Origin: TPA_inf: Saccharomyces
Lineage: Eukaryota
Direction: 5' to 3'
NCBI GenBank assembly: GCA_000146045.2
Contig: BK006940.2
Location: 96,001-160,000 of the forward strand
Length of the DNA: 64,000 nt
Made by a program: the position numbers and the translations under genes. This document shows positions 11,586 to 42,203 of this stretch, one piece after another; position 1 is the first letter of the stretch, and each line of letters begins with the position of its first letter. The notes beneath the pieces are model-generated. The model worked only from the letters and a program-made list of their open reading frames with translations. It did no database searches and was not told the DNA's origin.

Positions 11586-11851
11586 ATCTTTCGGAACTCT
11601 TTGTAGTTACATGGTTTTTTCTTTATGATGTGTGATGTTCCTTAATATTATATTCAATGAATAGCAGAGTAATAAAAAAATTCTAAAAAAAAAACGCTTA
11701 AATCGAGGTGGAATATATAAACTTAAGTACGCATATACTCTAGTTCAGTTTAAAAATTAGCTGTTTTTTTAAAAAAAAAAATTCTCTTTCTTTACAAAAT
11801 GTTCTTAAATGTATGTATGTGTGTGTGTGTGTGTGTGCGTATTGTTCTATT

Positions 11852-13930
11852 TCACTCCAGCTTAAACATGGCGGTTGCTTCTTCGTCATCAATTTCCGCG
11901 CGTTCGATTTTATTTAAAAGTACTTTCTTTGAAGCGCCGAGATTTTTCATGAAATCCGTCTCAAATCCAAGCAAATTATCTTTGAATTTCTTTCTCTTTT
12001 TACCGCGAATCCCAAGCACTGACGCTACGGGGATGTCTTCAAATTCATTGAATATCTTGATTAACCCAATATCGCGTCTTTTCAACCTGTTTGGCACCTG
12101 GGATTTTTTCAAATCGGCGAGAAACTCCTCTTGTGTCTTACCATTTTCTGACACATGCTTGTTCAGATCTAGCGATATTAGCTTGTCGACCTTGTTTACC
12201 GTAGCCGAACTATTGTATTTTTTCAATGGTGTTAGATTTAAATCGTTTTTGTCAATGATAGCAGCGGAGGTGATTTCTTCTTCTGTTTCTGTTGGTGCTG
12301 CTGGCGTTACTTTGGGCAGTTGTGGTGTGACTTTTTTCCTGTTCAATGTCATGGGTGAAGAAGATTCCAGTATGGGCGTAGGCGTCAAAAGTGATCTAGT
12401 CTCCTCTACAGTCTCCTCGCTCTTGTCATCTTCCCCTTCACCGTCCTCTTCACTCTTGTCACCACCGATACTGGGCTTTTTCACCTCTGTAACATTGGTA
12501 CGCTCGCGCTTCCTACCCTCCTCCATCTTACTCATGAATTCTCTTCTCTTGATGCGTTGGTTGGCTCCGAACTCTAATTCATCTTCAGGATCCGTGTCGT
12601 AACTGCGTTCCGTACACCTTAAAATGAACTTTCCAGCAGGTGCACCATCTTCCAATCCATTGAAAAATCTTACTGATTCTTCGACCTCCTCCTGGCTTAA
12701 GTTTGTCTCCAAATGAATATATAGCAGCCAAATCAATATGTTTGATCTATCCTTTGGCTCGTATTTCGAATAGTCCAGTATATCAAATAATGTTGTTGCA
12801 TAAGCTGCTTTTGATTCTTGTTTTTCATTTTCCGCTTCCGTTTCTTTTACTTCATTCTGTTCATCTACCATATCTTGCTCCTGAGCTTTCGATTCGACTT
12901 CCACATACTTGGAAAGAAACCTCTTGTCAATTAGGCCGGAATTATCACATATGCTAAACAACATATTAATAATGTTAAATTTGTTAACGGTGTCCACTTC
13001 ACCATCATTTTGGTCGACCTTTTTGTAAGTCTCCATCAATGAGAGTTGCTCATTGCCCCACGGCAGATTTTTCAGAATAGATTTCAGTCTAGGTGTATCC
13101 TGCAAAAGTTTCGGATCATTGGCATGTAATTGTAAAACTGGCACGGAGTGAAAAGTTCTCAATTGCGATGTCATTTCTAAATAAAAATTTATAGTGGTGT
13201 TCAACCTACCAATGTTGACCAATAACGCTAAAACACAAGTAGAAAATGCTACTTGTTGGTCTAATAATAGTTTATCTCTGAGAATTTTGGAACATTTGAT
13301 AGAAGTGGCTATTGTCAACACATACAATTGTGCGAACGTCAATTTATCGTTAAATACAAATGTCCTTGCATCGTACTCTTTGTCGGTCACGTTGATTGAT
13401 AATTTATCGCCATCGATATTAATGGGTACAATAGAGTTCTTGTATAGGGGTTTTAGAACATTAGTGAAGATTTGCCTCTTGTCCATCAACAGTTCTTGCA
13501 TGAAACTGAACTGAATGTCCTTTCTATTGAATGGCTCGCCGTCAGGTTTCTTCAAATGACGATTGTATTTACTGGCATTGCTTTCTTTGGGTTTCCTTCT
13601 AACAGTGTTAGTTGTCACTGGCCCCGTTGCCGTACTTGCTCCTGTTGCTTCAGGCACTGTAGAAGGTTCGAAGTTGAGCAAGATGTTGGTATTTTCTTCT
13701 TCACTTTGCGTGGAGTCATCATCATTTTTATCGTCGATTTCAATCTCGTGTATAACTGGAATGCTTTTTGTAGTCACAGTCTCGGTCTCTGATTGAATGG
13801 AGCTTGGGGATGCTTCTTCTTGTGATCCCGATTTTACAGATTGCATTGGAGAATCTGCTTTTGTTTCGTCAGAATTGTCTTCTCGTAGTTGGAAAGTATC
13901 ATGAATTGGATCGTATACTCTCTTCCCCAT
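11852..13930 (-). CDS. IES1: Subunit of the INO80 chromatin-remodelling complex, 692 aa, acidic and Ser-rich.
   Basis: A 692-aa ORF at the expected position between HSP12 and YFL012W. It has acidic, Ser/Thr-rich low-complexity N- and C-terminal regions. I recognise it by position and length rather than by a catalytic motif. Confidence 0.85.
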
Positions 13931-16344: not shown

Positions 16345-17985
16345 ATGGTTAGTTCAAGTGTTTCCATTTTGGGGACTAGCGCCAAGGCATCCACTTCTCT
16401 AAGTAGAAAGGATGAAATTAAACTAACCCCTGAAACAAGGGAAGCTAGCTTGGACATTCCATACAAACCCATTATTGCATACTGGACGGTGATGGGTCTC
16501 TGTCTGATGATTGCCTTTGGTGGATTCATTTTTGGTTGGGATACAGGAACCATTTCAGGGTTTATTAACCAAACAGATTTCAAGAGAAGGTTTGGTGAGT
16601 TACAAAGGGACGGCAGTTTTCAACTATCAGATGTCAGGACAGGGCTAATTGTCGGTATCTTCAACATAGGTTGTGCTTTAGGTGGCCTAACGCTGGGACG
16701 CCTGGGCGATATTTATGGGCGTAAAATCGGCTTAATGTGTGTTATACTGGTGTATGTTGTTGGTATCGTGATCCAGATTGCTTCCTCTGACAAATGGTAT
16801 CAATATTTTATTGGTAGAATTGTTTCTGGAATGGGTGTTGGAGGTGTTGCTGTGCTGTCGCCAACTTTGATCTCAGAAATTTCCCCAAAGCACCTAAGAG
16901 GCACTTGTGTCTCTTTTTACCAGCTAATGATTACCCTTGGAATTTTCTTGGGCTACTGTACCAATTATGGTACAAAGAAATATTCAAATTCAATACAGTG
17001 GCGGGTTCCCTTGGGTTTGTGTTTTGCGTGGGCAATCTTTATGGTGATTGGAATGGTTATGGTTCCGGAATCGCCCAGATATTTAGTAGAAAAAGGTAAG
17101 TATGAAGAAGCTAGAAGGTCTTTGGCCAAATCAAACAAGGTCACAGTTACTGATCCAGGCGTTGTTTTTGAGTTTGATACTATAGTTGCAAATATGGAAT
17201 TAGAAAGGGCTGTTGGAAATGCCAGTTGGCACGAACTCTTCTCAAATAAAGGAGCAATTCTACCAAGGGTAATAATGGGAATCGTTATCCAGTCACTGCA
17301 ACAGCTTACTGGCTGTAATTATTTTTTCTACTACGGCACGACCATTTTCAATGCTGTTGGAATGCAAGACTCTTTCGAGACTTCCATTGTCCTTGGGGCT
17401 GTTAATTTTGCTTCTACATTTGTTGCACTATACATTGTGGATAAATTTGGGCGTCGAAAATGTTTATTGTGGGGGTCTGCCTCGATGGCAATTTGTTTCG
17501 TCATATTCGCCACCGTTGGCGTCACTAGATTATGGCCACAAGGGAAAGACCAACCTTCTTCGCAAAGTGCTGGTAATGTTATGATCGTTTTTACTTGTTT
17601 CTTCATTTTCTCTTTTGCCATTACTTGGGCTCCTATCGCCTATGTCATTGTGGCAGAAACTTATCCATTAAGAGTTAAAAATCGTGCCATGGCCATTGCG
17701 GTTGGTGCGAACTGGATGTGGGGTTTCTTGATTGGATTTTTCACACCCTTTATCACTAGATCCATAGGATTTTCTTATGGCTATGTTTTCATGGGTTGCT
17801 TAATCTTTTCGTACTTCTACGTTTTCTTCTTTGTTTGCGAAACAAAGGGATTAACTCTGGAGGAAGTTAATGAAATGTACGAAGAAAGAATAAAGCCATG
17901 GAAGTCCGGAGGTTGGATTCCCAGTTCTAGAAGAACACCACAACCAACAAGCAGTACACCATTAGTTATTGTTGATAGTAAATAA
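16345..17985 (+). CDS. HXT10: Hexose transporter of the major facilitator superfamily (sugar porter), 546 aa, 12 TM segments.
   Basis: Sugar-transporter signatures [23 protein letters not shown] and [14 protein letters not shown] (PETKG-type), with the HXT-family layout. Confidence 0.93.
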
Positions 17986-18989
17986 TTTCTAAATATTCTT
18001 GTACTCTGGTAAACAGAAATAACAACAGATAATGGATTGATGCTTTACTTCTATTTCATGGAGATTGGTTTTATATAATAGCCTTTATTAATGGCGTCAC
18101 AAATTGAAAAAAAAATTAAAAAAAATAAGACGGACACATTTGCGACGCCGGTGAATAAATGCATATAAGTAGTTTATAAGCTAGCTACTACTCAGAAATA
18201 ATTTCAAAAAAAAAAAGAAGTGGGCACTTTAAAATGAAGATTAGCTATAGTAAATTACTGTAGTATAACAACTACCTGCTATCTTTCTGAAAAAATCAGG
18301 CAATGTAAGGTCAAACTTGTACCATCGACATATATAATGTTTTGAGATATAAGTAACTAGAGACCAGTTTATACAGGATCTTACCTCTTTTTACCGTTAT
18401 GAAAGCTTTATTACTGCGTTGTTAGTAAACACACATATTATTTTCGGGTAGTCCTGTCGATGTTCCAAGGCTTTGCATTTATCATTGTTTCCGCTTCATC
18501 GGTGGTATTAGTTAGTGTATCTGTATGTGAAGTATGTGGATAGGTGCTTCTATTATTGGAACAAAACACCTTAAACGCGCACTAGGTTATAGGAAAGGGT
18601 CCATTATTCAAAGAACGGCTTATTGAAAAGTATGTTGTAAAGCTCGGTCATATCGCGCATAGCCACGATAAGGCGTGGTGCTGCTTCATAGATTGAGAGG
18701 CGCAGTCAATACACAACCATACCGGTAGTTTGATAAATGATACTATCATTCCGGAAGCTCTCTAGTAAGCTGTAGGTGGCATATACGGTATCTATCATCT
18801 AGTAATAGCTATTGATTTTTTTCTCGACTATGCTATATGTGTTGTGATGGTTCACTTAGAAGTGAAAAAGTAGCAATAAATTAGACAGACAGAAGTAATT
18901 GAAGCTACATTCAACAACATGGCTAAGTAAAAAAGCGTAGAATATCATGATGGGTTTTTTTATCTTTTAATTGCTTTCTATGTAGTATA

Positions 18990-19274
18990 ATGGACCGATC
19001 TTTGCAAGTATATATCTGTATGTATCCATATTTAGATGGCAGCAAGCAATATAGATTTGATGAGCTTATATCATTTTATCGTCCTTGTCCAAAAAGTCTT
19101 GATAACATTAAAAGTCACTACCGTCAAATCCATCATCAAATCCGCCGTCGAACCCACCAGCATCATCAAATCCGCCGTCGGACCCACCAGCATCATCACC
19201 GTAGTAATTGTTCTCGACAACGACAGTGTCTGGTCCGTCATAGTTGTGGTCGTCAAATGCGTGTTCTAGCATAG
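18990..19274 (+). CDS. AUA1: 94-aa ORF antisense to the 3' end of WWM1. It is annotated as AUA1, but its reality as a coding gene is doubtful.
   Basis: It lies entirely within or overlapping WWM1 on the opposite strand. Its odd HHQIRRRTHQHH repeat is the reverse-frame image of the WWM1 tandem repeat. Confidence 0.35.
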   Translation: MDRSLQVYICMYPYLDGSKQYRFDELISFYRPCPKSLDNIKSHYRQIHHQIRRRTHQHHQIRRRTHQHHHRSNCSRQRQCLVRHSCGRQMRVLA

Positions 19275-19743
19275 CTCCACCTAACAAACCCGCACCAACA
19301 CCAAGTAAACCACCCATCATGGCACCGCCGTGTCCACTACCTTTACTGGTGCTTGGCGCAGTTCCATAGTATGCTTGCTGTGGTGCTGCTGCTGGCATAG
19401 GGGCTTGTTGAGGATAGTAACGCTGCTGTTGAGGGTATTGAGGGTACTGAGGCTGTTGAGGCTGATAGTAACGAGGTTGCTGTGCTTGGGCCCCTGCTTG
19501 CACTTGCGGTGTTGATTGAGAAGAATAAGGTGGAGGAGCCTGGTCTGCCTGTTGACGAGAACTCTTCTCATTGTTAACACCTGGTGGAGGACCTTTGGGT
19601 CTTGGCCATGTTGTTCCCCTTGGTGGTTCCCACTGAGAGCTGTTCGTAGATAAATCTACATAATACCAAGTCTGGTATTCATCATCAAAAACAGCCTTCC
19701 AGCCAGAAGGCACTTGAGGAGGATTACTTTTACTTTGAGCCAT
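19108..19743 (-). CDS. WWM1: WW-domain protein, 211 aa, with a Pro/Gln-rich middle region and a C-terminal GGFDD repeat.
   Basis: WW domain LPSGWKAVFDDEYQTWYYVDLSTNSSQWEPP, a PPPY motif, and the C-terminal run DDAGGSDGGFDDAGGFDGGFDDGFDGSDF. Confidence 0.9.
   Translation of the reverse strand: MAQSKSNPPQVPSGWKAVFDDEYQTWYYVDLSTNSSQWEPPRGTTWPRPKGPPPGVNNEKSSRQQADQAPPPYSSQSTPQVQAGAQAQQPRYYQPQQPQYPQYPQQQRYYPQQAPMPAAAPQQAYYGTAPSTSKGSGHGGAMMGGLLGVGAGLLGGAMLEHAFDDHNYDGPDTVVVENNYYGDDAGGSDGGFDDAGGFDGGFDDGFDGSDF
19131..19200. repeat. Tandem 30-bp repeat of about 2.3 copies (catcatcaaatccgccgtcg[a/g]acccaccag) in the WWM1 C-terminal coding region.
   Basis: Read directly. The copies at 19131-19160 and 19161-19190 differ by one base, and a partial third copy follows. 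Confidence 0.85.
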
Positions 19744-20144
19744 TACTTTAAAATGTTTTGGGTTTTTTTATCGACTCTCTTGTAGTGAGTGATAAAAGCA
19801 ATTCAGAAAGAGTCTTTTGATTATCATGACTAAAGTAAACTTTTTCTTCCAGCTGCCGGCTCGGTCAGGTGGACGAAACAAAAAAGCCTGTTGAAATAAT
19901 ACTGAATACGTTAAAACGTCACAGCGCTTGTATATCTTGTGAGAGAAAGGCTATTACCACTGTTATATGAATATAGATTGCTCAACAAAGCGTGTCTTTT
20001 TCTGTGTGCTTAAAATATAGTGTCTTTTTTGGGAAAAAAACGTTTATTTACAGTATTCTCTTCTTCTTCTCCTCATTCAACTTGTTGCGGTTCGAAGAAA
20101 ATTACGCATAAAGAATCAAAGAAAGGCAAAAATTACGCTGTACG

Positions 20145-22484
20145 ATGGGGTCGTTTCCCTTAGCTGAGTTTCCATTACGTGATATCCCTGTTCCTTATAG
20201 CTACCGTGTGTCTGGCGGTATAGCTTCCTCAGGTAGTGTTACTGCGCTTGTTACTGCCGCTGGCACTCATCGAAACTCGTCCACGGCTAAGACAGTTGAG
20301 ACAGAAGACGGCGAAGAAGATATCGATGAGTATCAGAGGAAAAGAGCAGCTGGTTCTGGCGAATCCACTCCTGAACGCAGTGATTTCAAAAGGGTAAAAC
20401 ATGATAATCACAAAACCCTCCATCCAGTTAACTTACAGAACACCGGTGCAGCGTCTGTGGATAATGACGGTCTGCACAATTTAACAGATATATCCAACGA
20501 TGCAGAAAAACTTTTGATGTCTGTGGATGATGGTTCTGCCGCACCTTCTACATTGAGTGTAAACATGGGAGTGGCATCTCATAATGTTGCTGCTCCCACT
20601 ACCGTCAATGCGGCAACAATAACTGGCAGTGATGTTAGTAACAATGTTAATAGTGCTACTATTAACAATCCTATGGAGGAAGGAGCGCTGCCGTTATCAC
20701 CCACTGCTTCCTCTCCAGGTACCACAACTCCTTTAGCTAAAACTACGAAAACTATCAACAACAATAATAATATCGCCGATTTGATAGAATCCAAAGATTC
20801 TATAATCTCCCCTGAATACCTTTCTGATGAGATTTTCAGCGCAATAAACAATAATCTCCCTCACGCATACTTCAAAAATTTATTATTTAGATTAGTTGCC
20901 AACATGGATAGGAGTGAACTATCCGACTTGGGGACTTTAATCAAGGATAATTTAAAGAGGGACCTAATAACGTCTTTGCCTTTTGAAATAAGTTTGAAAA
21001 TTTTCAATTATTTGCAATTCGAGGATATTATAAATTCCCTTGGGGTCTCCCAAAATTGGAACAAAATAATTAGAAAATCTACATCGTTGTGGAAAAAACT
21101 TCTGATATCGGAAAATTTTGTGAGCCCAAAGGGTTTTAATTCTCTCAATCTCAAACTCTCCCAAAAATACCCAAAACTCTCACAACAAGATCGCCTTAGA
21201 TTATCTTTTCTGGAGAATATATTCATTTTAAAAAATTGGTACAATCCCAAGTTTGTACCACAAAGGACCACGTTAAGAGGCCATATGACGAGTGTTATTA
21301 CGTGCTTGCAATTTGAAGATAATTATGTCATTACGGGGGCTGATGACAAAATGATCAGAGTTTATGATTCGATAAACAAGAAATTTCTTCTACAACTATC
21401 AGGTCATGATGGTGGGGTTTGGGCATTGAAGTATGCCCATGGCGGTATTTTAGTCAGCGGTTCTACAGACAGAACGGTGCGAGTTTGGGATATTAAGAAA
21501 GGTTGTTGTACCCATGTGTTTAAAGGTCATAACTCTACGGTGAGGTGCCTAGATATAGTAGAATATAAAAATATCAAGTACATTGTTACTGGTTCGAGAG
21601 ATAACACTTTGCACGTTTGGAAATTGCCCAAGGAGTCCTCCGTTCCTGATCATGGGGAAGAACATGATTATCCATTAGTCTTTCATACCCCTGAGGAGAA
21701 CCCATATTTTGTTGGTGTTTTAAGAGGACATATGGCATCTGTAAGAACTGTCTCAGGCCACGGTAATATTGTCGTTAGTGGCTCCTATGATAATACACTG
21801 ATTGTGTGGGATGTTGCGCAAATGAAATGTTTGTATATTTTAAGTGGACATACGGATCGTATTTATTCGACAATCTACGATCATGAAAGAAAAAGGTGCA
21901 TCTCTGCCAGTATGGATACCACTATTAGAATTTGGGATTTGGAAAATATATGGAATAATGGAGAATGTTCCTACGCAACAAATTCAGCATCGCCATGCGC
22001 CAAAATACTTGGTGCTATGTACACTTTGCAGGGTCATACAGCTTTGGTCGGTTTATTAAGATTATCCGACAAATTTTTGGTCAGTGCCGCTGCAGACGGT
22101 TCAATAAGGGGTTGGGACGCAAACGACTACTCTAGAAAATTTTCCTACCATCATACCAATTTGAGTGCAATTACCACATTTTATGTATCGGATAATATTT
22201 TGGTGAGTGGATCGGAAAATCAGTTCAACATCTATAATCTACGGAGTGGGAAATTGGTCCACGCAAATATTCTAAAAGATGCTGATCAGATTTGGTCGGT
22301 TAATTTTAAGGGCAAAACACTTGTTGCAGCAGTTGAAAAAGATGGACAGAGCTTTTTAGAAATTCTGGATTTCAGCAAAGCTTCAAAAATTAACTACGTT
22401 AGCAATCCCGTAAACTCCTCGTCGTCGTCTTTGGAATCCATTTCTACTTCTTTGGGTCTAACGAGGACAACTATAATACCATGA
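20145..22484 (+). CDS. CDC4: F-box/WD40 substrate receptor of SCF(Cdc4), 779 aa.
   Basis: F-box LPFEISLKIFNYLQFEDIINSLGVSQNWNKII, followed by a seven-to-eight-bladed WD40 domain (GHDGGVWALKY..., VWDIKKGCCTHVFKGHNSTVRCLD... and further blades). Confidence 0.96.
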   Translation: MGSFPLAEFPLRDIPVPYSYRVSGGIASSGSVTALVTAAGTHRNSSTAKTVETEDGEEDIDEYQRKRAAGSGESTPERSDFKRVKHDNHKTLHPVNLQNTGAASVDNDGLHNLTDISNDAEKLLMSVDDGSAAPSTLSVNMGVASHNVAAPTTVNAATITGSDVSNNVNSATINNPMEEGALPLSPTASSPGTTTPLAKTTKTINNNNNIADLIESKDSIISPEYLSDEIFSAINNNLPHAYFKNLLFRLVANMDRSELSDLGTLIKDNLKRDLITSLPFEISLKIFNYLQFEDIINSLGVSQNWNKIIRKSTSLWKKLLISENFVSPKGFNSLNLKLSQKYPKLSQQDRLRLSFLENIFILKNWYNPKFVPQRTTLRGHMTSVITCLQFEDNYVITGADDKMIRVYDSINKKFLLQLSGHDGGVWALKYAHGGILVSGSTDRTVRVWDIKKGCCTHVFKGHNSTVRCLDIVEYKNIKYIVTGSRDNTLHVWKLPKESSVPDHGEEHDYPLVFHTPEENPYFVGVLRGHMASVRTVSGHGNIVVSGSYDNTLIVWDVAQMKCLYILSGHTDRIYSTIYDHERKRCISASMDTTIRIWDLENIWNNGECSYATNSASPCAKILGAMYTLQGHTALVGLLRLSDKFLVSAAADGSIRGWDANDYSRKFSYHHTNLSAITTFYVSDNILVSGSENQFNIYNLRSGKLVHANILKDADQIWSVNFKGKTLVAAVEKDGQSFLEILDFSKASKINYVSNPVNSSSSSLESISTSLGLTRTTIIP

Positions 22485-41157: not shown

Positions 41158-41485
41158 TGCATATAGTTTGCGTTGATCAGCTACAGATTTCAATGCTATA
41201 ACTAGTTATTTTTATATGTTTCACTTTAAGTAAAATCCAACTGCTCTTTTGCTATTCTTCGTTGATGCCTTATATGTATGAAAGCTGTACGTTCGGGATT
41301 TGAAAAGGAAATGAAGACGCGAATTAAAAAAAAATAATAAACTGGTTCATAGCAGAAAAGAGGAGACTAAATAAGATTTTGCTCTCATACAGATGCAACA
41401 CATAAAAACTTTAATCGATTTCAGTATGGAAAAAGATATGATACAATAAAATCTAAATCTTAGAAACTGATTTTGAATAAAAAAA

Positions 41486-41559
41486 CGACCCCAGTGAGGG
41501 TTGAACTCACGATCTTGCGATTAACAGTCGCACGCCTTAACCAACTTGGCCATGGAGTC
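41486..41559 (-). tRNA. tN(GUU)F: tRNA-Asn (anticodon GUU), 74 nt, no intron.
   Basis: The reverse complement is gactccatggccaagttggttaaggcgtgcgactGTTaatcgcaagatcgtgagttcaaccctcactggggtcg, with B-box gagttcaaccc. Confidence 0.93.
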
Positions 41560-42203
41560 AGTCACTTTTGAGTTCTGCAACTCTTAAAACGGAATAGACT
41601 ACGTAAAACAATGTCATCCCATACCAAAACAATCCTGATTTCTCAAAGGCATCGCAAACCTCTGGAATAAAAATCCACTATCATCTATCAACTAATAGTT
41701 ATTCAATATATTATCATATACAGTGTTAGATGATGACATAAGTTATGAGAAGCTGTCATCGAAGTTAGAAGAAGCTGAAATGCAAGGATTGATAATGTAA
41801 TAGGATAATGAAACATATAAAACGGAATAGTCTAACATTAGTATGTAGAAATATGGATTCCATTTTGAGAATTCCTAAATCCTCGAGGAGAACTTCTAGC
41901 ATATTCTGTATATGTTGGAATAAAAATCAACTATCATCTACTAACTAGTATTTACGTTACTAGTATATTATCATATACGGTGTTAGAAGATGACGCAAAT
42001 GATGAGAAATAGTCATCTAAATTAGTGGAAGCTGAAACGCAAGGATTGATAATGTAATAGGATCAATGAATATTAACATATAAAATGATGATAATAATAT
42101 TTATAGAATTGTGTAGAATTGCAGATTCCCTTTTATGGATTCCTAAATCCTCGAGGAGAACTTCTAGTATATCTACATACCTAATATTATTGCCTTATCA
42201 AAA

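Follow-up and report, generated by a model that had tools for sequence, protein, structure and literature searches.

The closest described system is the AUA1/WWM1 gene pair of Saccharomyces cerevisiae S288C itself, which is listed among 13 overlapping 'verified' gene pairs (PMC3637596). AUA1 has been described as a de novo gene that is antisense to WWM1 and has no homologue beyond S. cerevisiae (PMC7841160, Blevins et al. 2021), a view restated by Montañés et al. 2023. Both the overlap and the classification of AUA1 as a de novo antisense gene restricted to this species have been published before. Treated alongside AUA1 in PMC7841160 are the pairs MDF1/ADF1 and VAM10/VPS5, likewise consisting of a young, species-restricted open reading frame (ORF) antisense to an older gene. 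A further comparable pair is HUR1/PMR1, whose dosage effect in gTOW overexpression was attributed to PMR1, the larger and conserved gene, just as that of the clone shared by AUA1 and WWM1 was attributed to WWM1 (PMC3561871). The screen credited WWM1 with the clone's low copy-number limit, given that the limit rose when WWM1 carried a frameshift; a frameshift mutant of AUA1 was unobtainable (PMC3561871). An SVM coding classifier scores AUA1 as non-coding (PMC3707884).

The locus described here is the same as the published one: product, synteny with CDC4, partial antisense overlap and species restriction agree, and no difference was found. It differs from the related pairs in three respects. VAM10 lies wholly inside VPS5, whereas AUA1 overlaps only the 3' end of WWM1 and reaches into its 3' flank. 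The overlapping part of AUA1 is a tandem repeat, unlike in MDF1/ADF1 and VAM10/VPS5. Finally, the small-ORF phenotype of HUR1/PMR1 belongs to the larger gene, whereas a corresponding transfer of the AUA1 ammonia phenotype to WWM1 is hypothetical. To the published account we add a substitution test by reading frame, an explanation of the open frame by the composition of the WWM1 tail, and a derived and recurrent change in the copy number of a 30-bp repeat.

Within the window, i.e. the whole stretch of 64,000 nucleotides that was analysed, the WW-domain product, the neighbouring CDC4-type ORF, and a 94-residue product identical to Aua1p of S288C (NP_116645.1) identify the locus, as judged from the DNA, as YFL010W-A/YFL010C (AUA1/WWM1) of an S288C-like genome. 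The CDC4-type F-box/WD40 ORF (20145-22484) adjoins WWM1, and WWM1 is flanked by CDC4 on one side and an HXT-type sugar transporter gene on the other in S. cerevisiae, in a sister species (L003), in S. arboricola, and in S. uvarum. The features of the locus are collected in Table 1. The ORF listing and TRF confirm the original prediction that the two ORFs overlap on opposite strands and both cross a 30-bp repeat of 2.3 copies. The nesting of AUA1 within the last third of WWM1, which was part of the same prediction, did not hold: the overlap is only partial and comprises 167 of the 285 nt of AUA1, corresponding to the last 26% of the WWM1 codons, and AUA1 codons 1-39 (the first 118 nt) are located 3' of the WWM1 stop codon. 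The only tRNA gene found by ARAGORN in the window is a tRNA-Asn (GTT) at 41485-41560 on the reverse strand.

Table 1. Features of the AUA1/WWM1 locus. Positions refer to the 64,000-nucleotide window.
Feature	Position	Strand	Description
AUA1 (YFL010W-A)	18990-19274	+	94 codons and stop; S. cerevisiae-specific
WWM1 (YFL010C) CDS	19108-19743	-	211 codons and stop; conserved, selected gene
Stretch read in both directions	19108-19274	both	167 nt; AUA1 codons 40-94 against WWM1 codons 157-211 and stop
30-bp tandem repeat	19131-19198		TRF: 2.3 copies, 97% matching, score 129
WW domain of WWM1, residues 12-41	19621-19710	-	PF00397, E = 8.2e-11
PPPY motif of WWM1, residues 70-73	19525-19536	-	P70 and P71 nearly invariant
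Second antisense ORF, 77 codons	19036-19269	+	other frame; also uninterrupted in L003 (sister species; 64 aa) and S. arboricola (81 aa)
Conserved non-coding island with TATATA and TATGTA	19003-19042		40 nt; 66-105 nt 3' of the WWM1 stop
Poly-T run, T7 here	18955-18961	+	sets the extension of the AUA1 frame to an ATG at 18947

Our preferred reading, to which we assign a probability of roughly 75%, is that WWM1 is the only frame at this locus shaped by selection, that AUA1 is a proto-gene born in the S. cerevisiae lineage without detectable constraint on its protein, and that the repeat is a strain-variable duplication. The AUA1 protein would then be without function. The relative register of the two frames is informative in this respect. 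Codon positions 1, 2 and 3 of AUA1 face WWM1 positions 1, 3 and 2, respectively, therefore a synonymous third-position change in WWM1 always alters a second position of AUA1; conversely, a third-position change in AUA1 is always a second-position change in WWM1. Orthologous DNA was compared with the sister species (L003 and L004), S. arboricola (L010) and S. uvarum (L011). The sister species may be S. paradoxus, as the distance of L003 and L004 from S. cerevisiae (dS = 0.39) fits this species. Against the three species, full-length WWM1 has an omega of 0.11-0.13, and its overlapping part one of 0.035-0.10. The substitutions in the overlap are distributed over WWM1 codon positions 1/2/3 as 4/1/14 (sister species L003), 4/6/18 and 6/6/16. 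The first of these distributions departs from equal shares (binomial p = 4e-4), with 14 of the 19 substitutions on third positions of WWM1, that is, on second positions of AUA1. A reduced synonymous rate of WWM1 within the overlap, the sign of dual coding, was found neither in the three species comparisons nor in polymorphism: the dS values of WWM1 are 1.08, 1.92 and 1.34 in the overlap versus 0.29, 0.85 and 0.79 outside (L003 first). The original claim that only one frame is under selection, namely that of WWM1, is borne out by these values. As far as these comparisons reach, WWM1 appears to be the sole frame here that shows selection, and the AUA1 protein seems to have changed freely, which it could do because the third positions of WWM1 are its own second positions.

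An alternative is that AUA1 encodes a functional young protein, an ammonia-responsive regulator of amino-acid uptake that has been selected since its birth, which would make the locus dual-coding. We consider this unlikely. Polymorphism was evaluated among 19 distinct S. cerevisiae haplotypes that were ascertained via distinct protein variants; the sample is not random. Four changes are synonymous in AUA1 (19043, 19088, 19220, 19235) and six are non-synonymous (19048, 19117, 19119, 19120, 19226, 19228). The two DNA SNPs at AUA1 third positions outside WWM1 (19043 and 19088) are both synonymous. A share of 4 synonymous changes in 10 is slightly above the neutral value of ~23%, as a functional protein would predict; with only ~10 SNPs, however, it amounts to no significant signature of selection (p = 0.18), and weak purifying selection on AUA1 could escape notice in a sample of this size. 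The WWM1 side of the overlap also argues against a second selected frame. WWM1-synonymous polymorphism is not depleted there (3 on ~26 sites, versus 5 on ~105 sites outside), hence these sites, which are second positions of AUA1, vary at least as much within the overlap as in the remainder of WWM1. The ratio of non-synonymous to synonymous polymorphism in WWM1 is 4:3 in the overlap versus 9:5 outside (p = 1.0). With no synonymous depletion and similar ratios inside and outside, AUA1 therefore casts no shadow on the variation of WWM1. A McDonald-Kreitman-style contrast for the WWM1 tail (fixed N4:S15 versus polymorphic N4:S3) was not significant (p = 0.15), and the pattern is not an effect of AUA1, because the ratio is similar in WWM1 outside the overlap. 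Every indel within the WWM1 CDS has a length divisible by three: 30 bp, or 9 bp in the case of L014. A common variant, 19235 C>T, present in 10 of the 19 sequences of the first sample, changes Gly170 to Glu in WWM1 and is synonymous in AUA1.

Coding tandem repeats with copy-number variation between strains are well known from yeast cell-wall genes such as FLO1. The 30-bp repeat of WWM1 resembles this type in a unit length that is a multiple of 3 nt, in its in-frame and recurrent gain and loss, and in its location within a low-complexity segment. It is unlike the FLO1 type in that only one or two copies are present, the protein is intracellular, and no length phenotype is known. The only mismatch between the units is an A at 19151 versus a G at 19181. 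Both peptide units named in the original prediction were found: the AUA1 frame reads HHQIRRRTHQ twice, and the WWM1 frame, which reads DDAGGS-DGGFDDAGGF-DGGFDD, contains the expected DGGFDDAGGF together with another unit that carries Ser188 where this one has Phe198. The comparison also agreed with the suspicion that copy number varies between strains. The repeat has 2.3 copies in 6 haplotypes, including that of the window, and 1.3 copies in 13 haplotypes as well as in the sister species L003; since the sister species carries 1.3 copies, the duplication in S288C is derived. The extra unit adds 10 residues to each product, resulting in 211 versus 201 aa for WWM1 and 94 versus 84 or 98 aa for AUA1. 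All long alleles share the G at 19181, which replaces Phe by Ser in WWM1 and is a synonymous change in an Arg codon of AUA1. Apart from its copy number, the short haplotype L029 agrees with the long haplotypes L025-27 in all variants across 1.1 kb, the linked T7 run among them, which indicates a secondary loss of one 30-bp unit. In other Saccharomyces, a 12-bp period (GGFD) is found at the same place in 3.2-5.5 copies, and the WWM1 tail is a generally length-unstable coding repeat. Among AUA1 variants on the contigs of a protein collection, the long allele accounts for ~16 versus ~430, in a sample that is not random and with gene calling that differs between alleles, which suggests that the long allele is in the minority, although these counts do not amount to an estimate of frequency. 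A plausible course is that the low-complexity, acidic (Gly-Gly-Phe-Asp)n tail of WWM1 drifts in length, presumably via slippage or unequal exchange, that a 30-bp block was duplicated in frame in a part of S. cerevisiae that includes S288C, and that one copy subsequently acquired the Phe-to-Ser change.

WWM1 varies at further sites. A 9-bp repeat of 4.4 copies (19425-19464) is located in the Gln/Pro-rich middle of the protein, and L014 (XXYS1_4/EM14S01-3B lineage) is without one 9-bp unit, corresponding to a WWM1 of 198 aa. This is a second length-polymorphic coding repeat within the gene. Two WWM1 residues are private to the window among the sampled haplotypes: Ser209 (19119; Gly in the others) and Gly84 (19494; Arg or Trp in the others).

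The start of the AUA1 ORF is variable as well. The poly-T run upstream consists of T7 in the window and in four of the five other long-repeat haplotypes, and of T8 in L032; T7 is also found in L029, which is short but descends from a long haplotype. L028 has T5, and the other short-repeat haplotypes have T6. With T6, the AUA1 frame continues 14 codons further upstream to an ATG at 18947, resulting in an ORF of 98 aa. The annotated N-terminus of AUA1 is therefore not constant among strains, and the ORF comprises 94, 84 or 98 aa depending on poly-T length and repeat number, which is not the picture expected of a functional protein. A possible frameshift allele points in the same direction: in L028 (GCA_030035955.1), the A5 run at 19091-19095 is one nucleotide shorter, which would shift AUA1 into the other open frame and give an 82-aa chimera. 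This deletion may be a natural frameshift allele or a homopolymer error of long-read sequencing.

We note that the open AUA1 frame is a by-product of the composition of the WWM1 tail, which is rich in Asp, Gly and Phe. The codons for these residues form no stops when reverse-complemented, and the AUA1 frame is therefore automatically open. In 20,000 shuffles of WWM1 that kept both the protein and the codon usage, the mean open length of the AUA1 frame, counted from the WWM1 stop, is 72 codons; the actual value of 54 is the minimum seen in the shuffles, and the probability of reaching the observed value is 1.0. The antisense ORF thus does not exceed chance expectation, which the repeat exceeds by far. 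Across the WWM1 tail, 53 codons of a second antisense frame are likewise free of stops. The resulting 77-codon ORF is a useful internal control, as it shows that antisense frames opposite the WWM1 tail are open, and nothing suggests that this one is a gene. Elsewhere in the window, a 267-codon ORF (11799-12602, forward strand), far longer than AUA1, runs antisense within a 692-codon ORF (11852-13930, reverse strand), a reminder that such ORFs arise without being genes.

The last 55 codons of AUA1 are the reverse complement of the WWM1 tail, and the first 39 belong to its 3' flank. When reverse-complemented, codons for Asp, Gly and Phe yield His, Arg, Gln, Ile and Thr, which makes the basic HHQIRRRTHQ repeat the mirror image of the acidic tail. 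AUA1 residues 40-94 form a basic His/Arg/Gln tract (pI 12.0) that mirrors the acidic tail of WWM1 (pI 4.05). A speculative extension is that a working AUA1 and WWM1 constitute a length-coupled, charge-complementary pair that links stress and nutrient-transport functions. We give this idea very little credence; if it were true, each 30-bp unit gained or lost would lengthen or shorten both proteins together. In the 3' flank, the conserved island shows 82-88% identity out to S. uvarum, versus 29-64% in its own flanks, and supplies AUA1 codons 5-18. TATATA and TATGTA are known as yeast polyadenylation efficiency elements, and on this basis the island is probably a signal for 3'-end formation of WWM1. 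With the WWM1 tail on one side and the conserved 3' island on the other, both halves of AUA1 thus lie on sequence constrained for other reasons. Even the coding sequence of WWM1 is less conserved than this island.

With respect to age, 18 of the 19 haplotypes carry an uninterrupted AUA1 ORF that begins with the ATG at 18990; L028 is the exception. The intact haplotypes include basal Asian lineages (SX2/BAH and XXYS1_4/EM14S01-3B were sampled), and the retention of the ORF in all sampled lineages, the most divergent Asian ones included, is compatible with a functional AUA1. Intactness across strains was considered as a sign of selection in its own right and rejected, as ~10 SNPs in 285 nt lead to no expectation of a stop by chance. 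The ORF is closed outside S. cerevisiae. L003 and L004 possess the ATG, yet the third codon is TGA, a +1 indel occurs after 19050, and another two stops are located in the homologous frame; the ORF of S. arboricola and S. uvarum reaches only 22-23 codons. One stop in the AUA1 frame is common to L003 and S. arboricola, therefore the closed state is ancestral. No AUA1 homologues outside S. cerevisiae were found among 5.8 billion proteins, where the two clusters obtained are both from S. cerevisiae, and a Pfam scan of AUA1 found no family match. An ORF that is confined to S. cerevisiae, disabled in three other Saccharomyces species and devoid of outside homologues is in line with the original suggestion of an annotation artefact or a very young gene. 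Under our preferred reading, the upstream loss of a few stops together with a 1-nt indel would have linked an ATG to the open antisense frame, AUA1 would have been born in the S. cerevisiae lineage, and its protein would since have been altered as the WWM1-synonymous sites dictate.

Evidence on the products of AUA1 is mixed. A transcript of 59-118 TPM, doubled under oxidative stress, has been reported (PMC7841160), and citing papers such as this one relay, in part, a published phenotype and the 'verified' status of the gene. Both observations favour a functional AUA1. The expression values conflict with one RNA-seq study in which the FPKM of AUA1 is 0, and no translation or peptide evidence for AUA1 itself was found in the literature. 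A single-sequence AlphaFold model of AUA1 (pLDDT 60.5) consists of a single long helix running through the repeat, with no confident fold, which likewise speaks against a functional protein. Alternatively, the transcript might act as an antisense RNA that tunes the expression of WWM1, with the ORF being incidental. The transcripts of AUA1 and WWM1 are convergent and overlapping, and changes in sense and antisense expression tend to correlate positively, from which related functions have been speculated (PMC7841160). The promoter region of AUA1 (18871-18989) is, however, poorly conserved, with 63-74% identity even with respect to the sister species, and we regard a regulatory RNA as highly unlikely. 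An Rfam scan of positions 17900-20200 at E <= 1 returned no match and hence no sign of a structured RNA.

WWM1, in contrast, is the conserved gene of the pair. The original prediction had described the WW-domain protein as conserved, and this is reflected in orthologues in synteny, in the low omega (0.11), and in the columns of the WW domain, which are nearly invariant in the orthologue alignment. Orthologues are found throughout Saccharomycetes. The Pfam score of the WW domain is 42.2 bits versus a cut-off of 26.9, and the C-terminal residues of the protein are also nearly invariant. The PPPY motif, described together with its degree of conservation in PMC1557994, is a potential WW-domain ligand.

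These properties bear on a further explanation, namely that AUA1 is purely an annotation artefact and that its phenotypes result from damage to WWM1, which could act on the Rsp5-dependent down-regulation of Gap1 by ammonia. A disruption anywhere in codons 40-94 of AUA1 eliminates the conserved C-terminus of WWM1, whose residues are nearly invariant; the dosage phenotype of the shared gTOW clone was credited to WWM1 (PMC3561871); WWM1 possesses a WW domain and a conserved PPPY motif (PMC1557994); and the down-regulation of Gap1 requires the WW-domain ligase Rsp5 together with its adaptors Bul1 and Bul2 (PMC2192387). A direct link of WWM1 to Gap1 or Rsp5 was, however, not found in the open literature, in which only a 2006 survey of WW domains (PMC1557994) mentions WWM1 together with Rsp5, and the stranded AUA1 transcript reported in PMC7841160 is not expected of a pure artefact. 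We therefore consider this explanation possible, yet doubtful, although the original ammonia/Gap1 phenotype might belong to WWM1.

For yeast genetics, phenotypes of aua1 deletions in genome-wide screens are inseparable from a truncation of WWM1. The S288C reference allele of the locus is atypical, as it combines the repeat duplication and the T7 run with two WWM1 residues, Gly84 and Ser209, that are private to it. While the findings open no new question for the field, AUA1 is a case in which a 'verified' small gene can show no sign of selection at the protein level, and the locus is a small teaching case of how the low-complexity tail of an old gene hands a long open frame to the opposite strand.
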